A DNA stretch of 64,000 nucleotides from a virus (IMGVR_UViG_3300035694_000088), one strand, 5' to 3'. Counted from the stretch's first letter, positions 16,537 to 30,780 are shown. The notes: generated by a model from the sequence alone, not told the origin. Numbers and translations are program-made.

Positions 16537-16926
16537 ATGCGTCGCGTGCAGCCCGCCGCGCAGTCCCCCACGCAATGTGCGCCGGGGTGCGGCGCTTGCT
16601 GCGACCCGGTCGCCATGCCCGTGCCACCAGATCGCATGAACGGCCCGTCGGGTCCGTTCGCCCGCCAGCACTGGCACGTGATCAGCGTGGTCGAGGACGA
16701 CCGGTCACCCACCGGGCGGGTGTACTCCCTACGCTGCGACCAGTTCGACCCGCACACCCGACGGTGCGGTGCCTACGCGGTCCGGCCGCCGATCTGCGCG
16801 AACTATCCCGCTTACGGGCACCCGCTGTCACCGTGCCACCCGAAGGCCGACGCGATTCCCCTCGTGTGCGCCTTCCAGGCTGACGTGCGCACCGTCCTGC
16901 CCCTGGTGGCGATCAATGGCCGATAA
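16537..16926 (+). CDS. YkgJ/UPF0153-like Cys-cluster (Zn/Fe-S) protein; start uncertain
   Basis: C...CGACC, C..FD..TRRC.AY..RP.IC..YP. Confidence 0.75.
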   Translation: MRRVQPAAQSPTQCAPGCGACCDPVAMPVPPDRMNGPSGPFARQHWHVISVVEDDRSPTGRVYSLRCDQFDPHTRRCGAYAVRPPICANYPAYGHPLSPCHPKADAIPLVCAFQADVRTVLPLVAINGR

Positions 16927-18760
16927 CCCCGATGTTGTCGCCACCCCCGCCACGCCCCCCACCGATGACCCGCAAACCGGGGGGATGCTCGCCCTGATCC
17001 CCGACAACGTCGAGCAGCTCGCCGTCGAGGGTGGCCTGCCCGCCAGTGAGCTCCACCTGACGTTGATCTACCTGGGGGATGACGTCAGCACCTGGGCGCC
17101 GGGACAGGCCGATCACCTCAAGGCGCTCGTGACGGCCAGCGGGCCGGGTTTGGATCCGGTGAACGCCCGGATCATGGGCCACGCCCTGTTCAATCCCGAC
17201 GGCGGTGCTGACGGGGACAAATCCCCGTGCGTGGTCTACCTGGTGTCCGACACGCCCGACCTCGAACCGTTGCACAAATGGGCCACCTGGACGGCGACCA
17301 CGGGACAGGATTACCCGACCCCGCCACCGCAGCACCAGCCGTTCATCCCGCATATCACGGCCGGGCAGGACATCGGACCCGATGAACTGTCCTACACCGG
17401 GCCGGTGCGGTTCTCGACATTGCGGTTGGCGCTGGGTGGCGACGTGACTGATGTGCCGTTGGGCGAGCAGGAGGACACCGTGGCCGGTCCGCAGATCAAG
17501 GGCATCACTTTCACCCCACCGAAAGAGGTTCGCGACGCAGCGTGGGATTTAGACGGCCCAATGGCCTGTGATGTGGTCGAGGGCAAGGCCCTGGACCCGG
17601 ACGGTTTGGTGTGGGTTGCGGCGCACTGCGGTGACGTCGGCCGGGAGTGGGCCCGGGACATGCTCGGTCGGGTCGAGGTCAAGACCGACATGAACATGGG
17701 CCGTGTCGTCGGCGGTGACCGGCCGAAACTGGAGTCTCTGAAAGACCTCGATGACGCGATCGGGGCGCATCACGAGCTGCCCGCCCAGGAGCGCGCGGAG
17801 AACGTCAAACGCCTCAAGGCGTCCGCGCACCGCCTGGGCGCGGATCATCACGTGCACGAGCGGATCGGCAGTCTGGAGACCGCCACGACCGACGGGTCCG
17901 GGCGCAAGGATGACGCTGACGGCGTCGAGTACAAGACGTGGGCGCCGGGCAATTCGACACCGCCGCTGTTGCCGCATCTGGCCGCGCTGGATCAGGCGAT
18001 CGCCGCGCACCACAAGGTGCGTCCGGAGGCGCGGGGTAAGCACAAGCACCATCTGAAGGTTGAGGCGCACCGTTTGGGTGCGTCGGGCAGTGTGCACGCC
18101 CGGATCGACACTCTGGAGCCGCATTCTTTCCATCCGGCACTGAAATCCGGTACTGATGGTGTCGAGTTCAAGGTCACCTCACCGGGGCCGGGCGCGACCC
18201 GCTTGCGGGAGTATTGGGCGCGCAATCCGAAAGGCCGGGCGAAGTGGCGTCCGGGCAGCGGCGGGGATTTCAACCGGCTGCGCCGCCATTTGGCGAAGTA
18301 CGTGCACAACCCGAAGATCCTTAACGGTTTGGCCGCGAACATTCACAAGATGGCCACCGGTGAGTGGCCCGGTAAGAATGCGCACACCATTCGAGCGAAG
18401 CCCGGCAAGCCGCTCACCTACGGGATTAAGTCCGTCGTGGCGTGGGAGTCGGTCGAGCAGAAGGACGCCCTCACCGAGCCGGACATGGCGGAGCTGTTCG
18501 CCGGGGTCGACGACTGGGGGCGTGAGTTCATCAGCGATGAGGCCGACGCCTACCTCGCGGCACTGGCCGAAGCCCAGGGCGAGCTCCCTGACGAGGGGGA
18601 GCCCGGGGACGTTGAGCGGACCGCCGCGCTGGCCGCGTTGGGCGCGAAACTGGTCGCTGACCCTGCCATGGGGGGGTCCGGGGACACCTCGGACGCTGCG
18701 GGAACCGACGCGGGGGACAGTTTGTTCGGCAGTACCGGGGTATCAGGGGTCGGGGAGTGA
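16916..18760 (+). CDS. multidomain head-associated protein: 2H phosphoesterase, two helical repeats, YW..GD..TGEWPG domain
   Basis: HLTL (17054) and HITA (17351) 2H motifs; lies between MuF and protease. Confidence 0.75.
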   Translation: MADNPDVVATPATPPTDDPQTGGMLALIPDNVEQLAVEGGLPASELHLTLIYLGDDVSTWAPGQADHLKALVTASGPGLDPVNARIMGHALFNPDGGADGDKSPCVVYLVSDTPDLEPLHKWATWTATTGQDYPTPPPQHQPFIPHITAGQDIGPDELSYTGPVRFSTLRLALGGDVTDVPLGEQEDTVAGPQIKGITFTPPKEVRDAAWDLDGPMACDVVEGKALDPDGLVWVAAHCGDVGREWARDMLGRVEVKTDMNMGRVVGGDRPKLESLKDLDDAIGAHHELPAQERAENVKRLKASAHRLGADHHVHERIGSLETATTDGSGRKDDADGVEYKTWAPGNSTPPLLPHLAALDQAIAAHHKVRPEARGKHKHHLKVEAHRLGASGSVHARIDTLEPHSFHPALKSGTDGVEFKVTSPGPGATRLREYWARNPKGRAKWRPGSGGDFNRLRRHLAKYVHNPKILNGLAANIHKMATGEWPGKNAHTIRAKPGKPLTYGIKSVVAWESVEQKDALTEPDMAELFAGVDDWGREFISDEADAYLAALAEAQGELPDEGEPGDVERTAALAALGAKLVADPAMGGSGDTSDAAGTDAGDSLFGSTGVSGVGE

Positions 18761-21700
18761 CCGCCACTCTCGGCGATATTGACACCCCGGAGGACATGAG
18801 TCCCCTGGAGTGGAAGTCCCTGCCGGGCGGGGAGATGACCTCCCCACTGACCGGGGTGATCGGTCACGACGACGCCGACGGCACGATCACCGCTTTGGTC
18901 GCGGTGTCTGGGGTGGTCGATGAGGTCGGTGACGTCATCGTGCCCGGCTCCCTGGAGGCGGCGATCAAGCGGCTTAAGCCTAAGGGGGTGATGTCGCACA
19001 ATTGGGGCGAGAAGGTTTCTAAGCTGGTGTGGTCGAAAGAGTTGATGCCGGGCGACCCGATGCTGCCCAAACAAACCCCCGACGGGCAGCCGTGGCCCGC
19101 CAACGCGGGCGGTCTGCTGATCAAGGCCCGGTACAATCTCGATAAGCAATCCGGGCGGGACGCGTACGCGGACGCGAAGTTCTACGGCCCGGAGGAGTGC
19201 TTTTCGATCGGCTATAAGGTTCGCCCCGGTGGCGCCCGGATGCGCAACGGGAAACGGTACCTGCACGATTTCGATCTATACGAATGGTCGCAGGTGCTTC
19301 ACGGGGCGCACCGTCTGGCGACCCTGACGGGGGTGAAATCCCTCGCCGACACCATCGAAGCCCCGTGGTACGATGGCACCCGTTCCGGTGACATCGAGGG
19401 GGATACCGCTCTGCCTGCTGACGTGGAAACCAAGGTTCGTGTTGTCCGCGACGCGGACTTCTGGCACCTGCCCGTCGGCACCCCCATCAAGCCCGGCATG
19501 GTCCCCCACGGACTGAACAGGCCACCCACCGCGCAAGAACTGCACTCCACCACCGCCGAAACCGGTGACGACGCCGGAGTCCACGGCGCCCCCGACGACG
19601 TCGCCACCCCCGGCATGCCCGGTGCCCCCGTTGGCCTGGGCGCCCCACCCATGCCCGACATGGCACTGCCCACCCCCGGGCCGAAAGACGGCGACGTACC
19701 CACCGGTGACCCCGAGGCGGCCGTCGAAGCGCTACGCAAACGCGTCGGAGAGATTCAGAAGCTCAACACTCCGGCCGCCCGCACCGCAGCCGCCGCCCTG
19801 ACCCCATTCCTGGTCCCCGGCGCGCCCGTGCGGGCATCAGCCGACGGGCAGCTCGTCGCCGTGCACACCGGTGACGCCTGGCGCTTCGCCGACACCGCCA
19901 ACGGTGGTGTCATGCAGGCCACCCTGCCCGGCACCCTGCCCCAACCCAACGTTGATGTCGTACTCCACGACCTGTCCCAGGTCGGTATCCCCTGGGATTC
20001 CGTGGAGGCCCGTCGCAAGCGCTGGTCCGATAACCCCGCCCAGCTCCAAGCCGACAAGACCGCTGTAGCGGGCATTTTCGCCAGGGGCGGCCTACCGCCG
20101 ACCACAACACCAGCCGGGGTCGGTGGCGCGGGAATGGGCGCCCCGCCACCCCCCGGCGTCCCCGCGCCACCGCAAGCGCCGAATGCGCCACCCGGTGCAC
20201 CCCCCAACGTCCCCGGTGCACCGCCCAACGCCCCAGGGCTCCCCGTCGGGGCACCGTCGGGTTACGCCCAACCCCCGGCCGTGCCCCCGGTACCGCCGCA
20301 AGCCGCCCCTGCCGTCACCCCCCCTCCGGCAGGGGCACCCCCCGTTTCGCCGAAAACGTTCCCGCGCGGCTCCCTGAAGGGCCACGGGGTGCAGCTCGGT
20401 GACCGGATCCGCGTCCACGGGCACCCCAAAGGCACTCTGGAAGGCACCGTCGAAACCGGCAAGACTGGGCACCATCTTGTGCACGACGACGGCACTAAAA
20501 CGTGGATCGGTGGGGCCGGGTCGCGCCACCACGTGGAGAAGCTCGGCAAGGCCGCCGACCAGCCGCCCAGGCCGCAGCCCGCCCCGGAGCCCGACAAGCC
20601 CGCCGCGCCCGCCGCGCCCGCCGCGCCGGAGCCGTATCAGGCCACCGGCAACATCAACGCCCCGCACAAGCTCACCGACGAACAACTGGCCACCGAATCC
20701 GCCCACGCCGCCGCCCGCTACGCCCGCGCCCGCGCCAACGGGGCACCGAAGACCTCCGTCGAGCATCACGACGCGAAACTGGGTCACACCGTCTTTCAGG
20801 ACGAGATCCGGCGCCGGGCCACCGGCGGGGAACACACCCCCGACGCGCCCCCGACACCGGGGACACCTCCCGCGCCGGATCTGAAACCAGTCTCGGACAT
20901 GACCCTGGAGGAGCTCCGCACCGAACGGCGCGGTCTGCTCAGCAATCACCGCACCCCTGCGGAGACGGCTCGCCTGCGCGAGATCCGCGACGAGATGACC
21001 CGCAAGGAAGACGCCGCCTGGCAAGAGGAGATGGCGACCGGTCGCGCCCATAAGAAGCTCGCTAATGCCGACGGCCCGGAGCTCCTGAAGGCCCTCTCTG
21101 AGGCATCCGACGAAGACCTAGCGAAGACCGCAGCCACTTGGAGCAAGAGCGACTCCAAGCGGGCTCGCCTCGTCAAGGGAGAGATCGCCCGACGGGCGGC
21201 TGCCGGTCAGGCCGCCGCGCCGGACAAGCCCGGAGAGGTCCCCGAGGGCAGTAAGCCCGCCGACACGATCCGAGTGCCCCCCGAGCTCGCTGACGGTGCA
21301 CACAAGGTTCGGGCGGACGCGCTGGGCATCATCGACGGCCCCGACGGGCAAGAGGAACTGACCCCCGAGGTCGCCGACCGGCAAGACCGCGTCCAAGCGC
21401 ACCTGGCGGCCGGGGAAACCGCCCTGGCCGACAAAACCGACGACGAGCTCCCCACGATCCGCAAGGATCTGACCGACGAGCTGGCGCTACAGAACGAACT
21501 GGCCCGGCGTGACATCGAGCGTCGTAAAGAGGTCGCCGCCGCGAAGGCCGGGGCGCCTTCCGAGTCGGCGGCCAACGCCCCGGCCGGGGCGGAAGATACC
21601 GGCCCGAAGCTGCGCCCCGGTGTCGCGGGGGCCGCCGAAGACCTCGGCGACGCCCTGAACGCCAAACCCCGTGACGACGCGACGGTGCACGCCGCCGCCG

Positions 21701-24700
21701 AACGGTTCGCGAAGATGCTGCGCCGTCACGGGGACTCGAAGTCCTTTGACGCGGTCCGGGCCGCTGCCGGTGACGACATCCACGCCGCCATCGCTTCTGG
21801 TGAGCTGCGTGCGGGGATGCTGTTCACCGCCGCCGGGGGTGTGCGTGAGGAGCGGCGCCTGGCCCGCAATGAGGGCGCTAAGAAGCGCCGTCTGGCTAAG
21901 CGCCTGGACCGGGACCGGATCAAGGCCCTCATCGGTGCGGTGGACACCGAGATCAGGTCGCGTAAGGATCGCAAGCGCGGCGCGGTGGAAACCAAACCTT
22001 CGGCGGTTCCGGTTGCGAGCACCACCGCGCCGTCCAAGCCGCGCGCCGCCGCCGAGGCCGCCATCCGTGACGGGGACCGGATCGCCCTGGTCGATGCCCT
22101 GCGGGAGATGGGTGACCCGGGTCCGCGTGAGACCGCGATGCGTCTGCGGGAACTGCCCGAGGATGAGGCGGTCGCCGGGCTCGCTGATGTCGGCAAACCG
22201 GCCAGCGTACCGGAGCCCGCCCCCCACCGAGGGCAGGTTCGCCGCGACGAACGCGACGCCCGTCTCGCCGCCGACGACAACCGCGTCGGCCGCGCCCAGG
22301 AGCACATGCGTCAGGCTCGCGCCGCCGCCGACGACGGCGACTTCGAGGGTGCATTCGCCCACCTTGATAAGGCGCAGGAACTGAACCCGGAGCGTCAAAA
22401 GCTGTGGGATAAGGCACGCGGGATCATCACCGAGCAGCGGGACCGCGCTAAGGGTGCACAATCGCCTGAAACGGAAGGCGGTGACCATGAACGCCCTAGC
22501 GGACCAGATCGAGGCGTGGTACCAGAAGTACCAACCGGAGGTCTACGACGGGATCAAGGACAAACCGGCGTTCTTTCGGGAACTGACCGGCCGGGCGAAC
22601 GAACAGATCGCCCAGTTGACCGACGCGCTGGCGGGACCGGACCAGCCAGGGGAGACCTACGCCCACAAACTGGGGCGCCTGAACATGGCGCAAGCGCAGG
22701 CGACGGAGAAGGTGACACGCGAGTTCGCGATGTGCCCACCGCCCCCCAACTGGAAAGACAGTCCGGCGCCGAGCCCGGAGACACCGGACCCGAGCATCCT
22801 CCCGGACGAGACGCCGGAGGACCGCAAGTTCCGGACGGCGATGGAGGACTTCGCGACAGCGAGCAGCGAACTGGACGACCAGCGCCGGAACACGAGACTG
22901 AAGACACTGCCGGTCCTGCCACCCCGGGGCAAGACACCGGCACCCCCGACCGGGAAGTAACCGCCGAGGACCAGCCCGGCGCGGACGCTTCGCAGGTCGA
23001 TGCGATCCCCGACACCGGGGAGTCGTTTCGCCCCACGGGTGAAGCCCTGGCCCCTGCGGGTAAGAAGGCGAAACTGGCGGCGAACCTCGCCGCCCTGCGG
23101 GTGCTGCGGGAGCTCCAGACCGAGAAGCGCTCCGCCACCCCGGCCGAACAGACCGTGCTGTCCCGGTGGGCCGGGTGGGGTGGCCTGCCTGAGGTGTTCG
23201 ACGATCGGAAAACCGAGTATGCGAAGGAGCGCGAGGAGCTACGTGGACTGCTGTCGCCCGCTGAATGGAACGAGGGCCGCCGCAACACCCTCAACGCTCA
23301 TTACACCGACCCCCGTGTTGTGCAATCAGTGTGGAAGGCGGTGGAGGATCTCGGGTTCGACGGCGGCCGTGTGCTTGAGCCCGGCTCCGGTTCCGGCACG
23401 TTCATCGGATTCGCCCCACCTGGGGCGGACATGGTCGGGGTCGAGCTGGACTCCACGACCGCTGCGATCTCTCGTGCCCTCTACCCGCACGCGACGATCC
23501 GCAATGAGTCTTTCGCCAAAACTCGCCTGCCAGCGGGGTCATTCGACGCGACGGTAGGCAACGTCCCGTTCGGGCAGTTCAGTCTGACCGACCGGGTGCA
23601 CAACCCCGGCCAGAAGATGTCGATCCACAACCATTTCATTGTCAAGTCGCTGGCGATGACCAAGCCCGGTGGTGTGGTCGCCCTGTTGACGTCGCGTTAC
23701 ACGCTGGACGCGCAGTCACCCCGGGACCGCAAGCGCATGGCGGAGATGGGGGATCTGATCGGGGCGGTGCGCCTGCCCACGGGGTCGCACTCGAAGACCT
23801 CCGGTACTGACGTCATCGAAGATGTGTTGATCTTTCGGCGTCGGGAGCCGGGCGCGGCCCCCCTGACCCCACAAGACTGGATCAACTCCAGTGAGCACGA
23901 CATCGACGGTCACCAGATCACCGTCAACGACTACTTCACCGCCCACCCCGACAACGTCCTCGGCGAGCTCCACGCCGAACCCGGCCAGTACGGCACCGGC
24001 AGCCTGATCGTCAAGGGCGACAGGGACATGCCGGGGCTCGCCGCCGCCCTCGACCGCATCACCGAGCAGGCCAAAGCCGACGGGGCCACCGCCACACCCC
24101 GTATGACCGACCTGCACGCCCTGGTCGACGCCGACACCGCCCGCCACGAAGGCCACATCGCCGCCCATGACGACGGCACCTTCACCCAAGCCGCCCAAGG
24201 CACCGCCGTCCCCTTCGACGTGCCCGACAAGCAAGCCGAGGAACTGCGCGGCCTGATCGGCATGCGCGACACCCTGACGTCGCTACTGACCGCTGAAGCC
24301 GCATCAGTGTCCGACTCGCCCCAAATCAAGGCACTGCGCGCCGACCTCAACGACCAGTACGACGCCTACGTCAAACGCTACGGGCCGATCAACCGCTACA
24401 CCCTGACCAAAACCGGGGCCCGCAACGCCCCCGGGCAAGGCGGGTTCCGGCGCGATCCCATGTCGGCGATCGTCCGCGCGTTGGAGGTCTACAACCCCGA
24501 GACCGGCAAGGCCGTCAAGACCGACATCTTCACCAAACGGGCCAGCTCCCCGCGTGAGATCCCCACCCACGCCGACTCACCCGCCGACGCGCTCGCCCTG
24601 TGCCTGGACACCTACGGGGAAGTCAACCTCCTCGAGATCGCCAAAATGCTCGGCGTCGGTGAGACCGCCGCCCGCCATCAGCTCGGCGACCTCGTTTTCG

Positions 24701-27700
24701 AGCAACCGCCCCTGACCGATGCCGAGCACACCGCCGCATGGACCGCCATGCGCGAAGACCACGGCGGCCTGGCCGACGAGAACGTTCCCGCCGACCGCAT
24801 CGACCTGTCCAGCGTTGGCGAATCGGTGCGCGCTGAAGGCGCCCTCGAACCTGCCGCCGCCTACCTGTCCGGCAACGTGCGCCGCAAACTGGCCGCCGCG
24901 AAGGCCGCCGCCGCCCACGATGACCGGTTCGCGCCCAACGTCGCCGCCCTGGAGAAGGTCATCCCCACCGACCTGGGGGTCGATGAGGTCGACGGGCGCC
25001 TGGGTGCGGCGTGGATCCCCGCCGACGACGTCAAGGCGTTCATGGTCGACCTGCTCCATGACGGCAACGACCGCTACAACTCCGTGCAGGTCGCCACCTC
25101 CGGTGGCGGGATCTGGACCGTCAAGGGCGGTGACCACGGGAACAAGGCCACCGAGCAGTGGGGCACCAGCCGCAAATCCGCTGGTGAGCTTATCGCCGCC
25201 ATGCTGGAACAAAAACCGATCCGGGTCACCGACACCATTGACGGGAAGTCCTACCCGAACCTTGAGGAGACCCTGGCAGCGCAGGCGAAAGCCGACGAGC
25301 TACAGGAACGGTTCTCCGAGTGGCTGTTCGAGGACTCCGATCGCACCAAGCGTCTCCTGCGGTCCTACAACGACCAGTTCAATGCGATCCGGTTGCGGTC
25401 CTACGACGACATGCCCCGAGTGTTCCCCGGTATGGCCGACCGGTTCGTACCCAGGGATCATCAGGTTTCGGCCGTCAACCGGATCGTTTCCGAGCCCACC
25501 GCTTTGCTGGCGCACGTCGTCGGGGCGGGCAAGACTGCTGAAATGGCCATGGGCGCCGCCGAGCTCAGACGCCTGGGGATGGCTAAGAAGCCCGCGATCG
25601 TGGTCCCTTCGCACATGCTGGAGCAGTTCACCCGCGAATATCTCCAGATCTATCCCAACGCGAAGATCCTGGCCGCTGGGACCGATGATCTGGGCGGGGA
25701 CAAGCGTCGGGAGTTCGTGGCGCGCGCCGCCACCGGGCAATGGGATTGCGTCATCCTGACAAAAGATGCGATGCAGCTCATTCCCATGTCGCCCGAGGCG
25801 ACAGAGGCATACATTGCTCGCGAAATGGCCACCATGCGCGCCCAACTGGAAGCCGCCCAGGCCGAAGGCGGGGACGCCGCCCAGCAGGCGACAGTAAAGA
25901 AAATGGAGAAGGCCGTCATCAGCGCCGAGGAGGCGCTGCGGGCGAAACTGGAGAAGACGAAAGACGCGGGGGTGTCTTTCGAGCAGACCGGCATCGACTA
26001 CCTGTTCGTCGACGAGGCACACCAGTACTCGAACCTGCGCACCGTGTCCAACATTCAGGGCGCCGGGGCGACCGGGTCGGGTATCGCCACCGACCTGCAC
26101 ATGAAGATCGAGCACCTGCGGGCGAACAACGCATCAGGGCGGGTGGCGACGTTCGCCACCGGCACCCCGATCCGCAACACCGTGACGCAGGCGTACATCA
26201 TGCAACGGTTCCTGCGGCCCGACCTGCTCAAAGAGGCCGGGATCAACTCGTTCGACCAGTGGGCCGCGACGTTCGGGCAGACCGTCGACGAGATGGAACT
26301 GAAGCCCGAGGGCACAGGTTTCCGCCAGACCACCCGGTTCGCGAAGTTCCGCAACGTCCCCGAACTGCTGCGACTGTTTCAGATCTTCGCCGACGTCAAG
26401 ACCGCTGAAGACCTCAACCTGCCCACCCCGAAACTGGAGGGTGGGGAGGTTGACAACGTCGTCGTACCGTCCACTGATGAGCTCAAGGCCACCATGGCGG
26501 AGCTCGCGCAGCGCGCCGACGACTACCGCAACGGCAAGCCGCAGAAGCGAGAAAACGCCGCTGGTACCGGCGAGGTCGAAGACATGATGCTGCTGATCAG
26601 CATGGACGGGCGTAAGGCCGCCATGCGGCAGTCGGACAAGCTGGACATAGCGGCCGACAAAATGTTCGCGATCTGGGAGAAGACCAAAAACAAGCCGGTA
26701 CCTAAAGACCTCGACGATCCCACTGCCGGGGATGACCCGCCACCCGGTGGGCTACAGATCGTGTTCTCCGACATGTTCACCCCCGGTGGCACCGGCGCTG
26801 ACGATTTCAACGCTTATGAGGCGCTGCGGCAGAAGCTGGCCGACCGGGGAATGGACCCGACCACGATCAGGTTCATGCACGACGCGAAAAACGACCGACA
26901 GAAGGCGGAACTGTTCGCCGCCGCCCGCAACGGTCAAGTCTCCGTCCTCATCGGGTCCACAGAGAAAATGGGTGTCGGCACTAACGTGCAACGCCGCGCT
27001 GTGGCCCTGCATCACCTCGACGCCCCGTGGCGCCCGTCGGACCTCGAACAGCGCGACGGCCGGATCATGCGCCAGGGCAACGCCAACGACACCATTTCGA
27101 TCCACCGGTACGTCACCGAAGGCTCATTCGACGCCTACATGTGGCAAACCCTGGAACGCAAAAAGAAGTTCATCGACCAGATCATGCGCGGCACCCTGGA
27201 TCAGCGCGAGATCGAAGACGTCGGCGAGACCGCCCTGTCCTACGCCGAAGTCAAAGCGCTGGCCACCGGCAACCCCCTGCTGTTGCACAAGGCCACCGTC
27301 GACACCACGATCGGCAAACTGTCCCGCCTGGAACGCACCCACAATCGCACCCAAACCAACCTGCGGCGCGACGTCACCAACTACCGGGCCAAAGCCGAAG
27401 CCGACGACGAGCACGCCACCCACCTCACCCGCGCGATCACCAAACGCACCGACACCACCACCGGTGACAACTTCGCGATGACCGTCCACGGCACCACCAC
27501 CCACGATCGGGGTGAGGCCGCCGCGATGCTCAAGGCGAGCATCGAAGACGTGGTTCGCAACAACTACTACAGCAACAAACCCAAGCCGGTCGCCGAGTTC
27601 GGTGGCCACCGGCTGATGGCCGCCGTGGACACCTACTACGACCGTTCCGGGGCCCGGCGTTCCGGGGTGACCCTGACGTGGGATGGGATCCCCGACCACA

Positions 27701-29181
27701 AGGCCGCGACTCTGGGTCACACCCAAATGGCCAGCATCGGTCAAGGCACGCTGGCCACCCTGCACAACTCTCTGCACTCCCTGGAATCCCGCAGGGACCG
27801 GGCCGTCGCCCGCGCCGAGCACCTGCGTGACGAGGCCGCCGTGATGGAACAACGCGTCGGCGTGGAGTTCCCGCACGCGCAAGCCCTCAAGGAAGCACGG
27901 GCGGAGTCCGCGCGCCTGAGTGCCGCCATGACCAAAGCGGGCATGTCGGCCACCGGCGAGTCCGGTGACTCCGAAGCGACCAAAGCGCTCGCCACGGCCC
28001 GGACGAAGGCCGCCACCCAGGCCACGCGCATGGGCCGCTCCGGTGGCACCGCAGCGGCCACCCTGAAACGGTTCGGCAACTCCACCGCATCCCCCGGCGC
28101 GGTCGCCTCACCCAGTGGCGCGATCGGCGCGTTCGGGCGTGACCACGATGCGCACGTGTTCCTCACCGACGACGGCACCGACCTGCGGGATCTGGCCGGG
28201 ATCAGCTCAACGACCATGCCCGGTGTCATCGACAACAATCAGGCCCTGGTCGATGACCTGGACAAGCTGGATCTGCCCCTGGCCGAGGGCGTTCACGCCC
28301 TGTACCGGCGCTGGAACGACTACACCTATGAGGCCCCGGACTACTCGAAGCCCTACGAGGAGCGGGAGCGCATCGCCCAGGCGAAACGGGACAAGGTCAA
28401 GGCCGTGGAGGCGGGGGACAAGGCCGCGATCCGGGCGGTGTTCGCCCGGCACATGGTGGCCGACACGACCCCGGCGAAGACCGGGGTGGAGCTGGCGAAG
28501 GTCAACGCCGCGCGGGCCGCCACGGGCACCCGCATCGGGGATCTGGCCAAGAAGCGGTTGCAGCGGTTCGCGAAGGCCAGCAAACGCATCGAGCACTACT
28601 CATCGGATGACGGCACGATAGCGGCGGTGGCCGACACCAGCGGGAACCTGGAGTACTTCCCGACCGGTAACGGCAGGCCGCTCAACGACCCATCGTTGGA
28701 GCGGCCGATCGCCGACCCGCAGGCCGTGGTCAACGACCTGGCCGCCCTGAACATCCCCCTGGGCGACAACGACGCCCTGCGGGAACGGTGGGGCAAGGGC
28801 GACGGGCAGCAGCAAAAGGACTTAGAGGCGATCAAGGCGGTCTATCGTCGCCACATGGAGCCCGAGGAGAAGGCCCTGATCAGTCCCATGGACCTGCTGA
28901 GGGCGCACCGTATCGGTGTTGAGGTCAAACTGCGCGCCGATACGGGGGCTAAGCCCGCACCGGACGCCGGAGACGCCGGGCTGGAGCCGTTCACCACGAT
29001 CGTCGCTGATGACGTGCGCTACACCATGGACGCGTCCGGGGTGCTTCAGCGGCTCGTCGACTGCCCGGAGTGCGGGGCGCAGATGACCGTCCCGGCCTAC
29101 GGGGGGTCGGTCGCCCCACCGTGCCCCGCGTGCGGTGCGGTGCCCCAGGGTGTCGACTCGCGCCGGGCGCCGGTGGGCTGA
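18757..29181 (+). CDS. prohead protease (HK97/S78) fused to DarB-like N6-methyltransferase and SF2 helicase
   Basis: Protease SHN/FSIGY; MTase VLEPGSGSG and GNVPFG; helicase HVVGAGKT, VDEAH, TGTPIRN, WRPSDLEQRDGRIMRQGN; C-terminal CPEC..CPAC. Confidence 0.85.
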   Translation: MTATLGDIDTPEDMSPLEWKSLPGGEMTSPLTGVIGHDDADGTITALVAVSGVVDEVGDVIVPGSLEAAIKRLKPKGVMSHNWGEKVSKLVWSKELMPGDPMLPKQTPDGQPWPANAGGLLIKARYNLDKQSGRDAYADAKFYGPEECFSIGYKVRPGGARMRNGKRYLHDFDLYEWSQVLHGAHRLATLTGVKSLADTIEAPWYDGTRSGDIEGDTALPADVETKVRVVRDADFWHLPVGTPIKPGMVPHGLNRPPTAQELHSTTAETGDDAGVHGAPDDVATPGMPGAPVGLGAPPMPDMALPTPGPKDGDVPTGDPEAAVEALRKRVGEIQKLNTPAARTAAAALTPFLVPGAPVRASADGQLVAVHTGDAWRFADTANGGVMQATLPGTLPQPNVDVVLHDLSQVGIPWDSVEARRKRWSDNPAQLQADKTAVAGIFARGGLPPTTTPAGVGGAGMGAPPPPGVPAPPQAPNAPPGAPPNVPGAPPNAPGLPVGAPSGYAQPPAVPPVPPQAAPAVTPPPAGAPPVSPKTFPRGSLKGHGVQLGDRIRVHGHPKGTLEGTVETGKTGHHLVHDDGTKTWIGGAGSRHHVEKLGKAADQPPRPQPAPEPDKPAAPAAPAAPEPYQATGNINAPHKLTDEQLATESAHAAARYARARANGAPKTSVEHHDAKLGHTVFQDEIRRRATGGEHTPDAPPTPGTPPAPDLKPVSDMTLEELRTERRGLLSNHRTPAETARLREIRDEMTRKEDAAWQEEMATGRAHKKLANADGPELLKALSEASDEDLAKTAATWSKSDSKRARLVKGEIARRAAAGQAAAPDKPGEVPEGSKPADTIRVPPELADGAHKVRADALGIIDGPDGQEELTPEVADRQDRVQAHLAAGETALADKTDDELPTIRKDLTDELALQNELARRDIERRKEVAAAKAGAPSESAANAPAGAEDTGPKLRPGVAGAAEDLGDALNAKPRDDATVHAAAERFAKMLRRHGDSKSFDAVRAAAGDDIHAAIASGELRAGMLFTAAGGVREERRLARNEGAKKRRLAKRLDRDRIKALIGAVDTEIRSRKDRKRGAVETKPSAVPVASTTAPSKPRAAAEAAIRDGDRIALVDALREMGDPGPRETAMRLRELPEDEAVAGLADVGKPASVPEPAPHRGQVRRDERDARLAADDNRVGRAQEHMRQARAAADDGDFEGAFAHLDKAQELNPERQKLWDKARGIITEQRDRAKGAQSPETEGGDHERPSGPDRGVVPEVPTGGLRRDQGQTGVLSGTDRPGERTDRPVDRRAGGTGPARGDLRPQTGAPEHGASAGDGEGDTRVRDVPTAPQLERQSGAEPGDTGPEHPPGRDAGGPQVPDGDGGLRDSEQRTGRPAPEHETEDTAGPATPGQDTGTPDREVTAEDQPGADASQVDAIPDTGESFRPTGEALAPAGKKAKLAANLAALRVLRELQTEKRSATPAEQTVLSRWAGWGGLPEVFDDRKTEYAKEREELRGLLSPAEWNEGRRNTLNAHYTDPRVVQSVWKAVEDLGFDGGRVLEPGSGSGTFIGFAPPGADMVGVELDSTTAAISRALYPHATIRNESFAKTRLPAGSFDATVGNVPFGQFSLTDRVHNPGQKMSIHNHFIVKSLAMTKPGGVVALLTSRYTLDAQSPRDRKRMAEMGDLIGAVRLPTGSHSKTSGTDVIEDVLIFRRREPGAAPLTPQDWINSSEHDIDGHQITVNDYFTAHPDNVLGELHAEPGQYGTGSLIVKGDRDMPGLAAALDRITEQAKADGATATPRMTDLHALVDADTARHEGHIAAHDDGTFTQAAQGTAVPFDVPDKQAEELRGLIGMRDTLTSLLTAEAASVSDSPQIKALRADLNDQYDAYVKRYGPINRYTLTKTGARNAPGQGGFRRDPMSAIVRALEVYNPETGKAVKTDIFTKRASSPREIPTHADSPADALALCLDTYGEVNLLEIAKMLGVGETAARHQLGDLVFEQPPLTDAEHTAAWTAMREDHGGLADENVPADRIDLSSVGESVRAEGALEPAAAYLSGNVRRKLAAAKAAAAHDDRFAPNVAALEKVIPTDLGVDEVDGRLGAAWIPADDVKAFMVDLLHDGNDRYNSVQVATSGGGIWTVKGGDHGNKATEQWGTSRKSAGELIAAMLEQKPIRVTDTIDGKSYPNLEETLAAQAKADELQERFSEWLFEDSDRTKRLLRSYNDQFNAIRLRSYDDMPRVFPGMADRFVPRDHQVSAVNRIVSEPTALLAHVVGAGKTAEMAMGAAELRRLGMAKKPAIVVPSHMLEQFTREYLQIYPNAKILAAGTDDLGGDKRREFVARAATGQWDCVILTKDAMQLIPMSPEATEAYIAREMATMRAQLEAAQAEGGDAAQQATVKKMEKAVISAEEALRAKLEKTKDAGVSFEQTGIDYLFVDEAHQYSNLRTVSNIQGAGATGSGIATDLHMKIEHLRANNASGRVATFATGTPIRNTVTQAYIMQRFLRPDLLKEAGINSFDQWAATFGQTVDEMELKPEGTGFRQTTRFAKFRNVPELLRLFQIFADVKTAEDLNLPTPKLEGGEVDNVVVPSTDELKATMAELAQRADDYRNGKPQKRENAAGTGEVEDMMLLISMDGRKAAMRQSDKLDIAADKMFAIWEKTKNKPVPKDLDDPTAGDDPPPGGLQIVFSDMFTPGGTGADDFNAYEALRQKLADRGMDPTTIRFMHDAKNDRQKAELFAAARNGQVSVLIGSTEKMGVGTNVQRRAVALHHLDAPWRPSDLEQRDGRIMRQGNANDTISIHRYVTEGSFDAYMWQTLERKKKFIDQIMRGTLDQREIEDVGETALSYAEVKALATGNPLLLHKATVDTTIGKLSRLERTHNRTQTNLRRDVTNYRAKAEADDEHATHLTRAITKRTDTTTGDNFAMTVHGTTTHDRGEAAAMLKASIEDVVRNNYYSNKPKPVAEFGGHRLMAAVDTYYDRSGARRSGVTLTWDGIPDHKAATLGHTQMASIGQGTLATLHNSLHSLESRRDRAVARAEHLRDEAAVMEQRVGVEFPHAQALKEARAESARLSAAMTKAGMSATGESGDSEATKALATARTKAATQATRMGRSGGTAAATLKRFGNSTASPGAVASPSGAIGAFGRDHDAHVFLTDDGTDLRDLAGISSTTMPGVIDNNQALVDDLDKLDLPLAEGVHALYRRWNDYTYEAPDYSKPYEERERIAQAKRDKVKAVEAGDKAAIRAVFARHMVADTTPAKTGVELAKVNAARAATGTRIGDLAKKRLQRFAKASKRIEHYSSDDGTIAAVADTSGNLEYFPTGNGRPLNDPSLERPIADPQAVVNDLAALNIPLGDNDALRERWGKGDGQQQKDLEAIKAVYRRHMEPEEKALISPMDLLRAHRIGVEVKLRADTGAKPAPDAGDAGLEPFTTIVADDVRYTMDASGVLQRLVDCPECGAQMTVPAYGGSVAPPCPACGAVPQGVDSRRAPVG
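22487..22960 (+). CDS. nested TnpV-like ORF in an alternate frame of the giant gene
   Basis: AAGGCGGTG RBS, high GC3 in this frame, FF.EL...IAQL..ALAGPD.PGE.Y..KLGRLN.A...A.E.V motif. Confidence 0.6.
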   Translation: MNALADQIEAWYQKYQPEVYDGIKDKPAFFRELTGRANEQIAQLTDALAGPDQPGETYAHKLGRLNMAQAQATEKVTREFAMCPPPPNWKDSPAPSPETPDPSILPDETPEDRKFRTAMEDFATASSELDDQRRNTRLKTLPVLPPRGKTPAPPTGK

Positions 29182-29430: not shown

Positions 29431-30780
29431 GTGACCGCACCTACCCTCGACCGCCACGACAAGGATCTGATCAGTCGCGGTCGAGCTGAAGTCAAAACCC
29501 TGAACACCAAACTTGATGAGATCACCAAATCCGGGTGGCTCGATTCCGACGGCAACATGCACGTCGAGCCCGGTGCGCTGGCCGAGTTCAAAGACACCCT
29601 GGCCAAGGCTGAGGAGGCGCACGGTATCGTCGCCGCGCTGGAGCGCAAGGGTGCTCTGGATGCGTGGCTCGATGCCCCCGCAACCGATTCCCCCGCCGCG
29701 CTGGTAGCTGGCGGCGGCAACATGGTCCGCCAGGCCGAGTACAAGTCGCTGGGTCAGCGGTTCGTGGAGTCGACCGAGTTCAAGGGTCACCGTGATTCCG
29801 GGTTCATGGATTCCGCTTTCGTGGTGGAAGACCAGGAGATCACCTACGGGGCGCAGTTCAAGGATGTGCACTCCGGGTCGATCGGGGTTGTGACTCACCC
29901 CGGTTTCGGCACGGTGCAGCGGGCACCGATGGTGCAGGCCCCCATGCTCACGTGGCGGGTCCGGGACTTGTTCCCGCAGATGAACACCAACTCCGTGATG
30001 ATCGAATACATTGAGGAGCTTGGGTTCGTCGACGCGGGCGACAACGCCGCCGCGATGATCCCCGAGCGTGACGGGGTCGCGCCACCTAACGACAACTTCG
30101 GTCTGAAGCCGAAGTCACAGATCCACTTCAACATCAAGACCACGCCGATCCGGACGCTGGCGCACTGGGTTCCGGCATCACGCAACGTGCTTGATGACGA
30201 GCCGCAGTTGCGGGGGATCATCGACACCCGCCTGCTGTACGGCCTGCGTCTGGTCGAGGACCAGCAGTTGCTGCTGGGTGACGGCACGGGACAGAACCTG
30301 CTCGGCATTTTCAACACGCCGGGTATTCAATTGTTCCCCTCCGGCGGGTATCACGCACCCACCAATGAGACCTATGTTGACGCCATTCGCCGTGGCGCCA
30401 CGCGGGTCATGCTCGCCCAGTACGACCCCACCGGCGTTGTCGTGCACCCTTACGACTGGGAGCGCATGGAATTGACCAAGGACACCCAGGGCCGCTATCT
30501 GGTCGCGGGGTCGGTCACTTCCGGTGCGGAGAAGCGGCTGTGGCAGATGCCGGTTGTGGCCACCCCGGCGTGCCCCGAAGGCACCGCGCTGATCGGCGCG
30601 TTCGGTTTGGGCGCGCAGGTCTTCGACCGGATGCAGTCCAATATCCGGACCGCTGACCAGCACGCGGACTTCTTCGTCCGTAACGCGATCGTGGTCCTGG
30701 CTGAGGAGCGGCTCGGTTTGGCCGTCTACCGTCCGGCCGCCATGGTCAAGGTCAACCTGTCCGCCGCGATCACTCCGTAG
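29431..30780 (+). CDS. major capsid protein, HK97 fold, with N-terminal delta domain
   Basis: RTLAHWVPASRNVLDDEPQLRGIIDTRLLYGLRLVEDQQLLLGDGTGQNLLGI; AEERLGLAVYRPAA. Confidence 0.95.
   Translation: MTAPTLDRHDKDLISRGRAEVKTLNTKLDEITKSGWLDSDGNMHVEPGALAEFKDTLAKAEEAHGIVAALERKGALDAWLDAPATDSPAALVAGGGNMVRQAEYKSLGQRFVESTEFKGHRDSGFMDSAFVVEDQEITYGAQFKDVHSGSIGVVTHPGFGTVQRAPMVQAPMLTWRVRDLFPQMNTNSVMIEYIEELGFVDAGDNAAAMIPERDGVAPPNDNFGLKPKSQIHFNIKTTPIRTLAHWVPASRNVLDDEPQLRGIIDTRLLYGLRLVEDQQLLLGDGTGQNLLGIFNTPGIQLFPSGGYHAPTNETYVDAIRRGATRVMLAQYDPTGVVVHPYDWERMELTKDTQGRYLVAGSVTSGAEKRLWQMPVVATPACPEGTALIGAFGLGAQVFDRMQSNIRTADQHADFFVRNAIVVLAEERLGLAVYRPAAMVKVNLSAAITP

Follow-up and report, generated by a model that had tools for sequence, protein, structure and literature searches.

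The window analyzed here, a stretch of 64,000 nucleotides from the soil phage sequence IMGVR_UViG_3300035694_000088 (G+C, 67%), carries one exceptionally long ORF amid its head-module genes, with the major capsid gene following at 29431-30780. The giant ORF starts at GTG 18757, and its product has, in order, a head maturation protease domain, long linkers, TPR-like helices, a linker read from the shadow frame of a second gene, an LPD36 domain, an N6-adenine methylase, an SF2/SNF2 helicase, and a zinc ribbon. The second gene lies wholly within the first, on the same strand and in another frame. The features are as follows.

18757-29181, plus strand: giant ORF (3474 aa), from the ORF call with PHROG and Pfam matches
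18862-19362, plus strand: head maturation protease domain of the giant protein (PHROG 80 match, residues 36-202, E 1.5e-14)
22451-22466, plus strand: 16-nt motif AGGGTGCACAATCGCC (core GGTGCACAATC), conserved at the nucleotide level in six phage-group sequences (the window and L002-L006)
22468-23046, plus strand: predicted disordered linker in the giant frame (approximately residues 1238-1430; pLDDT <50 and no secondary structure, model residues 55-247)
22473-22478, plus strand: Shine-Dalgarno sequence GGAAGG of the nested gene, 8 nt 5' of its ATG
22487-22960, plus strand: nested gene for the 157-aa TnpV-like protein, offset to +1 from the giant frame; ATG at 22487, TAA at 22958-22960
23047-23370, plus strand: LPD36-type helical domain 5' of the methylase (LAPAGKKAKL...; GWGG motif at 23167-23184), as in PMC5512222
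23371-23571, plus strand: methylase core motifs (VLEPGSGSG at 23371-23397; NVPF at 23560-23571)
25444-27078, plus strand: SF2/SNF2-type helicase (GAGKT at 25522, DEAH at 26011, Helicase_C)

The distal two thirds of the giant protein belong to the DarB-like methylase-helicase family. PHROG 10089 (DarB-like antirestriction) matches it with E values of 2.3e-12 and 5e-8, ResIII and Helicase_C both pass the Pfam cut-offs, and an Eco57I-type methylase match stays under its Pfam cut-off. LPD36 with GWGG, a methylase with NVPF, and a helicase with GAGKT and DEAH are all present, the composition of the LPD36-methylase-SF2 helicase module of polyvalent proteins defined by Iyer et al. in 2017 (PMC5512222). 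That paper describes LPD36 as four helices with a GxGU motif and mentions neither tnpV nor an overlapping frame. In a structure model of the giant-frame segment, the GWGG motif sits in a stretch between modelled helices. The sequence-only reading had placed the beginning of the methylase about 70 nt after the nested stop; this is right for the conserved N-terminal part of the module, which starts 33 to 87 nt beyond the stop, but the catalytic motifs come only at 23371 and 23560. The sole blastn match of the region to phages is short, in the methylase, and to Sinorhizobium phage PBC5; tblastn against cultured phage records gave no match. Directly 5' of the giant gene is a 663-aa ORF (16769-18760), whose end overlaps the giant start by 4 nt and which matches PHROGs common to RNA-ligase/2H-type domain and head-protein fusion families; from these matches, it would therefore be one more enzyme built into the head module.

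The nested ORF has the properties expected of a gene in use. The ATG and its ribosome-binding site are present as the sequence-only reading had described them; GTG 22454 was considered as an alternative start and rejected, as it lacks usable Shine-Dalgarno spacing. When G+C was followed by codon position along the giant ORF, giant-frame GC3 was ∼0.82 throughout, except at 22357-22956, where it falls to 0.50 to 0.55; over these same bases the first position of the giant frame, which is the third position of the nested one, has a G+C of 0.81 to 0.86. The per-frame comparison thus bears out the earlier observation that G/C-ending codons in the nested frame face A/T-ending codons in the giant frame. 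A word-based search returned four close homologues, 44 to 79% identical and each predicted as a small gene in its own right on a metagenome contig, and a profile search of 1.8 billion representatives returned a family of 561 cluster representatives at E ≤0.001, mostly of 100 to 200 aa. Based on an alignment of 50 sequences, AF2 models the protein as helical with a pLDDT of 89.2 (helices at residues 3-15, 17-22, 26-49, 58-81, and 110-140). Scans of 22200-23200 detected nothing resembling a promoter; a single terminator-like site, at chance level, lies on the minus strand.

Selection differs between the two frames, as a comparison of the window with its relatives reveals. Omega is 0.35 to 0.75 in the nested frame, indicating purifying selection, whereas over the nested codons the giant frame has an omega of 1.3 to 2.4, typical of a shadow frame, which drops to 0.11 to 0.2 downstream of the nested stop. 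The fall in dS, from 0.54 in the flanks to 0.34 in the nested frame, is only modest. The start and stop codons of the nested ORF are kept in all 20 relatives inspected (the start being ATG, with GTG in one locus), and in most of them a GGAAGG, GGAGG, or GAGGAGG site lies roughly 5 to 15 nt 5' of the start; this site is weak or unclear in a few, e.g., L008 and L019. These data bear on the idea that the nested ORF is a fossil, a former tnpV gene now read solely as giant-frame linker. A gene that is no longer used can retain its codon signature for some time, and a giant frame free of amino acid constraint is what a recently recruited linker would display. However, nested omega stays below 1 even against relatives at 44 to 46% identity, the translation signals persist across families of Actinomycetota, and the protein has a confident fold and a family of several hundred clusters, making a fossil very improbable.

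The nested protein itself has no match in Pfam (at E up to 1), PHROG, or NCBIfam, and searches of the PDB by sequence profile and by fold found nothing significant that resembles it. Its relatives are more informative: many match PF14198 with 13.6 to 19.7 bits (E, 0.0008 to 0.07), short of the gathering cut-off of 27 bits, and always over one shared portion of the profile. Among 50 members scanned, 7 had such a match, and PF14198 was the only family matched by more than one of them. In the ESM Atlas, the closest clusters bear the name "TnpV protein" (0.89 and 0.87 by features; TM of 0.53 by fold), which PGAP also gives to the plasmid homologues. Because of these repeated subthreshold matches and the concordant Atlas and PGAP names, we hold that the protein is TnpV-like, as had been proposed, in the sense of a probable distant relative that falls outside Pfam's own membership rule. 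When a tree of the TnpV-like proteins was built, those of the phage group came out as a single clade (support, 100/97) nested among the other family members; the tree has a midpoint root only, and so we claim no direction of transfer. Proteins of the phage group have an added proline-rich stretch (PPPPNW..SPETPDPS; window positions 22730-22960, nested residues ∼82 to 157) and a confident C-terminal helix (residues 110-140), whereas plasmid forms have an acidic tail instead.

In the giant frame, the bases of the nested ORF encode a sequence rich in G, R, P, D, and E. The structure model gives coil with pLDDT of <50 over the nested ORF and the next 30 residues, with well-modelled helices on either side, in agreement with the low-complexity linker noted from the sequence; the shadow frame of the nested gene forms the core of this linker. 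Any stop codon in the giant frame would need a T at a nested third position, and T-ending codons make up only 2 of the 157 nested codons (1.3%), compared to 7.8 to 13.4% in the flanks of the giant gene and in the capsid gene (binomial P of 2e-6 to 3e-4). As an empirical null, the equivalent frame is stop-free in 4.9% of 157-codon stretches from the 25 long genes of the window. Among related loci, the giant frame is stop-free across the entire nested ORF in 21 of 21 (L001-L005, L006-L013, L014-L019, and L020-L022; the sequence of L023 is identical to that of L022), including L020, a contig with 45% G+C. Synonymous shuffles that keep the biased codon set are unremarkable for single sequences (P of 0.13 to 0.78), with P values of 0.016 and 0.034 in two lower-GC contigs. 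The case for selected openness therefore rests on the depletion of T at third positions, the empirical null, and the many lineages; since the lineages are related, joint probabilities across loci are inexact. Both frames thus appear to be open beyond chance, with translation signals for the inner one, and the comparisons show a giant frame selected over the nested ORF for openness alone, not for sequence, as far as sequence evidence goes. On the same evidence the region is dual coding, as had been suggested, with the nested ORF under selection and the giant frame held open.

An arrangement of three genes could be imagined instead: the shadow frame would be open owing only to the high GC and to tnpV's codon usage, the tail of the protease would be meaningless, and the DarB-like protein would be started afresh beyond the tnpV stop, through coupling at a noncanonical codon. 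Single-sequence shuffles, in which P(open) reaches 0.67 to 0.78, speak for it, and so does the frequent splitting of the locus into such units by gene callers and PGAP. Yet the depletion of T is confined to the nested ORF, the null gives 4.9%, and the frame is open at every locus, the 45% GC one among them. The DarB-like module has a conserved beginning, QVDAIPDTGESF at 22993 followed by LAPAGKKAKL at 23047 (..ANLAAL), and no ATG, GTG, or TTG was found between the nested stop and these residues, which are therefore reachable only from upstream. The stops of tnpV also vary among TAA, TAG, and TGA, with GTA, ATA, CTA, or CTG as the overlapping codon of the helicase frame; the internal TTG or GTG starts that PGAP chooses for a "helicase-related protein" remove conserved residues. 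Finally, three distinct upstream parts, a short peptide, a primase, and a head protease, all enter the module in the giant frame, as independent N-terminal fusions. Three separate genes are thus an improbable account of the locus.

The relatives reveal what these upstream parts are. The layout of the window, i.e., protease, nested gene, and DarB-like module, recurs in two IMG/VR viral contigs (L006 and L007), whose giant ORFs begin with the same head maturation protease domain. In Micromonospora (L009-L012 and L015; plasmid and genome), a DnaG-type primase domain, recognized by Pfam DNAG_N and the PHROG DNA primase family, is fused upstream in the same frame, giving proteins of ∼2,500 aa; PGAP annotates a single 2,502-aa "helicase" there, without tnpV. 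In a conjugative element of Solirubrobacteraceae, the module is preceded by a type IV coupling protein and a transglycosylase, and the plasmids inspected come from Arthrobacter, Kocuria, and Nocardia. In these plasmids and the conjugative element, the helicase frame has its own Shine-Dalgarno sequence and a start 82 to 115 nt 5' of the tnpV ATG (82 to 85 nt in four of five loci and 115 nt in L018), and the DarB-like genes open with a conserved 25-residue peptide, MARR....GQLS(L/I/F)..(F/L)(L/W)F, at the following positions.

L008, 9919-10000: 25-residue N-terminal peptide
L014, 8919-9000: 25-residue N-terminal peptide
L016, 7889-7973: 25-residue N-terminal peptide
L018, 7883-7997: 25-residue N-terminal peptide
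L022, 142-223: 25-residue N-terminal peptide

Its QLSLxxLF core resembles beta-clamp-binding motifs, and the peptide could be such a motif or a transfer signal. RefSeq treats the module inconsistently: in L014 (NZ_MH067970.1), L016 (NZ_CP126486.1), L018 (NZ_CP031419.1), and L015 (NZ_CP108881.1), it is annotated either as tnpV plus a helicase shortened at an internal TTG or GTG or as one long helicase without tnpV. Three loci in which no helicase is annotated have lost the intact module: in L013 (9944-10374), it is broken by an insertion-sequence transposase just after the nested stop, and in L017 (7901-8677) and L019 (7952-8743), it has decayed to the first 30 to 60 residues of the DarB-like N terminus. 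We considered these three as helicase-free controls and rejected them on account of the DarB remnants in L017 and L019 and the IS interruption in L013. The comparison also speaks to the generic concern that goes with any single assembly, here that a compensating pair of indels has put a real in-frame domain out of frame. Nothing specific points to such an artefact, and the same two-frame layout with the nested stop recurs in more than 20 independent assemblies, finished plasmids included, which leaves it a negligible probability.

These observations change the history proposed for the overlap. The sequence-only reading had stated that tnpV-like genes precede helicase-methylase genes in integrative conjugative elements and plasmids, and homologues do sit with DarB-like genes there. 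It had gone on to propose that the phage made the dual-coding region by fusing its protease to the enzyme across tnpV. This finds no support, since tnpV is already spanned by the helicase frame in the plasmids and the conjugative element, so that the overlap predates the phage protease fusion. The phage is not the creator of the nesting, because it recurs in all the intact relatives examined, whether on actinobacterial plasmids, in conjugative elements, or in phages. A further clue, that the stop context is one base from a GTGA start/stop overlap, was accurate as to the string (GAAGTAACC is present), but since stops and overlapping codons vary, the GTGA reading has no comparative support; we rejected an ancestral GTGA overlap, as the helicase-frame codon at the tnpV stop is never a conserved start. 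The overlap thus appears to be an old property of the tnpV/DarB-like module, with a peptide, a primase, or a protease in front. In the texts, titles, and abstracts examined of papers that mention tnpV, an abbreviation with many unrelated uses, we found no description of the nesting.

The 16-nt motif AGGGTGCACAATCGCC occurs once in the window, just 5' of the nested ribosome-binding site. The six phage-group sequences keep it despite divergence elsewhere; in the giant frame it reads GAQS, with rare A-ending codons. Plasmid and conjugative-element versions of the locus lack it. An internal promoter, an RNA site, and a protease cleavage site are all conceivable roles. The position of the motif also favors programmed frameshifting, which would join the frames into a protease-TnpV protein (+1 before 22487) or a TnpV-DarB protein (−1 before the stop); ∼100 nt upstream of the ATG are open in both frames, and long phage genes elsewhere use frameshifting. 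Against this, neither end has a conserved slippery heptamer, the motif is missing where plasmids and conjugative elements share the same layout, the strong Shine-Dalgarno sequence and ATG favor separate initiation, and selection holds the entire shadow frame open and not just one end. Frameshifting is therefore very unlikely.

Taken together, the evidence makes it quite probable that the locus is a genuine same-strand gene within a gene, in which the outer frame supplies a disordered tether and the inner frame a TnpV-like protein, an arrangement that the phage shares with the older module. Ribosomes starting at 18757 would read 22487-22960 in frame 0 and produce a tether, ∼190 aa with its flanks, that links the head-protease/TPR part to the LPD36-methylase-helicase (DarB-like) part; it would be disordered because openness, and not sequence, is selected over these bases. 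Other ribosomes would start at the internal Shine-Dalgarno sequence and ATG (22473 and 22487) in the +1 frame and yield a separate helical protein of 157 aa. With the outer frame translated as a tether, the DarB-like enzyme would stay joined to its upstream targeting part. Fusion to the protease may bring the enzyme into the capsid and thereby into the host along with the DNA, in the manner of P1 DarB. For its part, the TnpV-like protein could be an accessory or regulator that works with the DarB-like module, with expression of the two coupled through their shared mRNA. Complex prediction for the TnpV-like protein and the LPD36-methylase region gave a score of 0.00 against a mark of 0.32, which is evidence neither way.

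A bolder reading is that DarB-like methylase-helicases, wherever they are found in phages, plasmids, and conjugative elements of several phyla, have TnpV as their obligate partner or regulator, and that the nesting is a control device, with inner initiation and outer elongation competing on one mRNA and so setting the ratio or timing of the two proteins. We put this forward tentatively and consider it rather doubtful. If true, TnpV, an orphan for 30 years, would act in anti-restriction and not in transposon excision.

The nesting matters in several respects. Annotation pipelines err here in two opposite ways, either dropping tnpV inside a giant "helicase" or shortening the helicase at an internal TTG or GTG, and the tnpV/DarB nesting provides a rule for correcting both. 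It links a mobile-element protein, TnpV, with the anti-restriction module found most widely in phages and conjugative elements, pointing to a joint function that can be tested. It also offers a clean natural case in which one frame encodes a constrained folded protein and the other a linker selected for openness alone, useful for the study of how overlapping genes originate and persist. Within the phage family, the linker joins a head protease to a DarB-like enzyme and so bears on possible capsid loading.

Embedded same-strand gene pairs are known from phage lambda, where Rz1 lies within Rz and both products are needed. The window resembles that pair in that its larger gene wholly encloses a complete smaller one, which is read in the +1 frame from a start of its own. 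In contrast to Rz/Rz1, the large gene here uses the shared bases as an unconstrained linker only, the constrained reading in the small gene seems to be the older of the two, and the pair occurs in plasmids, conjugative elements, and phages alike.

The giant gene resembles P1 DarB and the LPD36-methylase-SF2 module of polyvalent proteins (PMC5512222) in its LPD36 domain, GxGU-type motif (GWGG), NVPF motif, and SF2 helicase. Its place within a block of head genes, with the fusion to a head protease and the capsid gene close behind, is consistent with virion delivery, as in a DarB-like function whereby a packaged protein guards incoming DNA against restriction. It differs from the module described there in being fused in frame to a head maturation protease. 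The nested protein, like the TnpV of mobilisable transposons of the Tn4451/Tn4453 type (PF14198), for which a role like that of lambda Xis has been postulated (PMC3158075), is a small helical protein of mobile elements; on the Arthrobacter plasmid pA40H1, moreover, the tnpV-like gene comes after a recombinase gene, as tnpV comes after tnpX in Tn4451-type elements. Unlike the transposon proteins, those of the phage group have the extra proline-rich stretch and C-terminal helix, and whereas tnpV of Tn4451 is described as a stand-alone gene, that of the window is nested within another.
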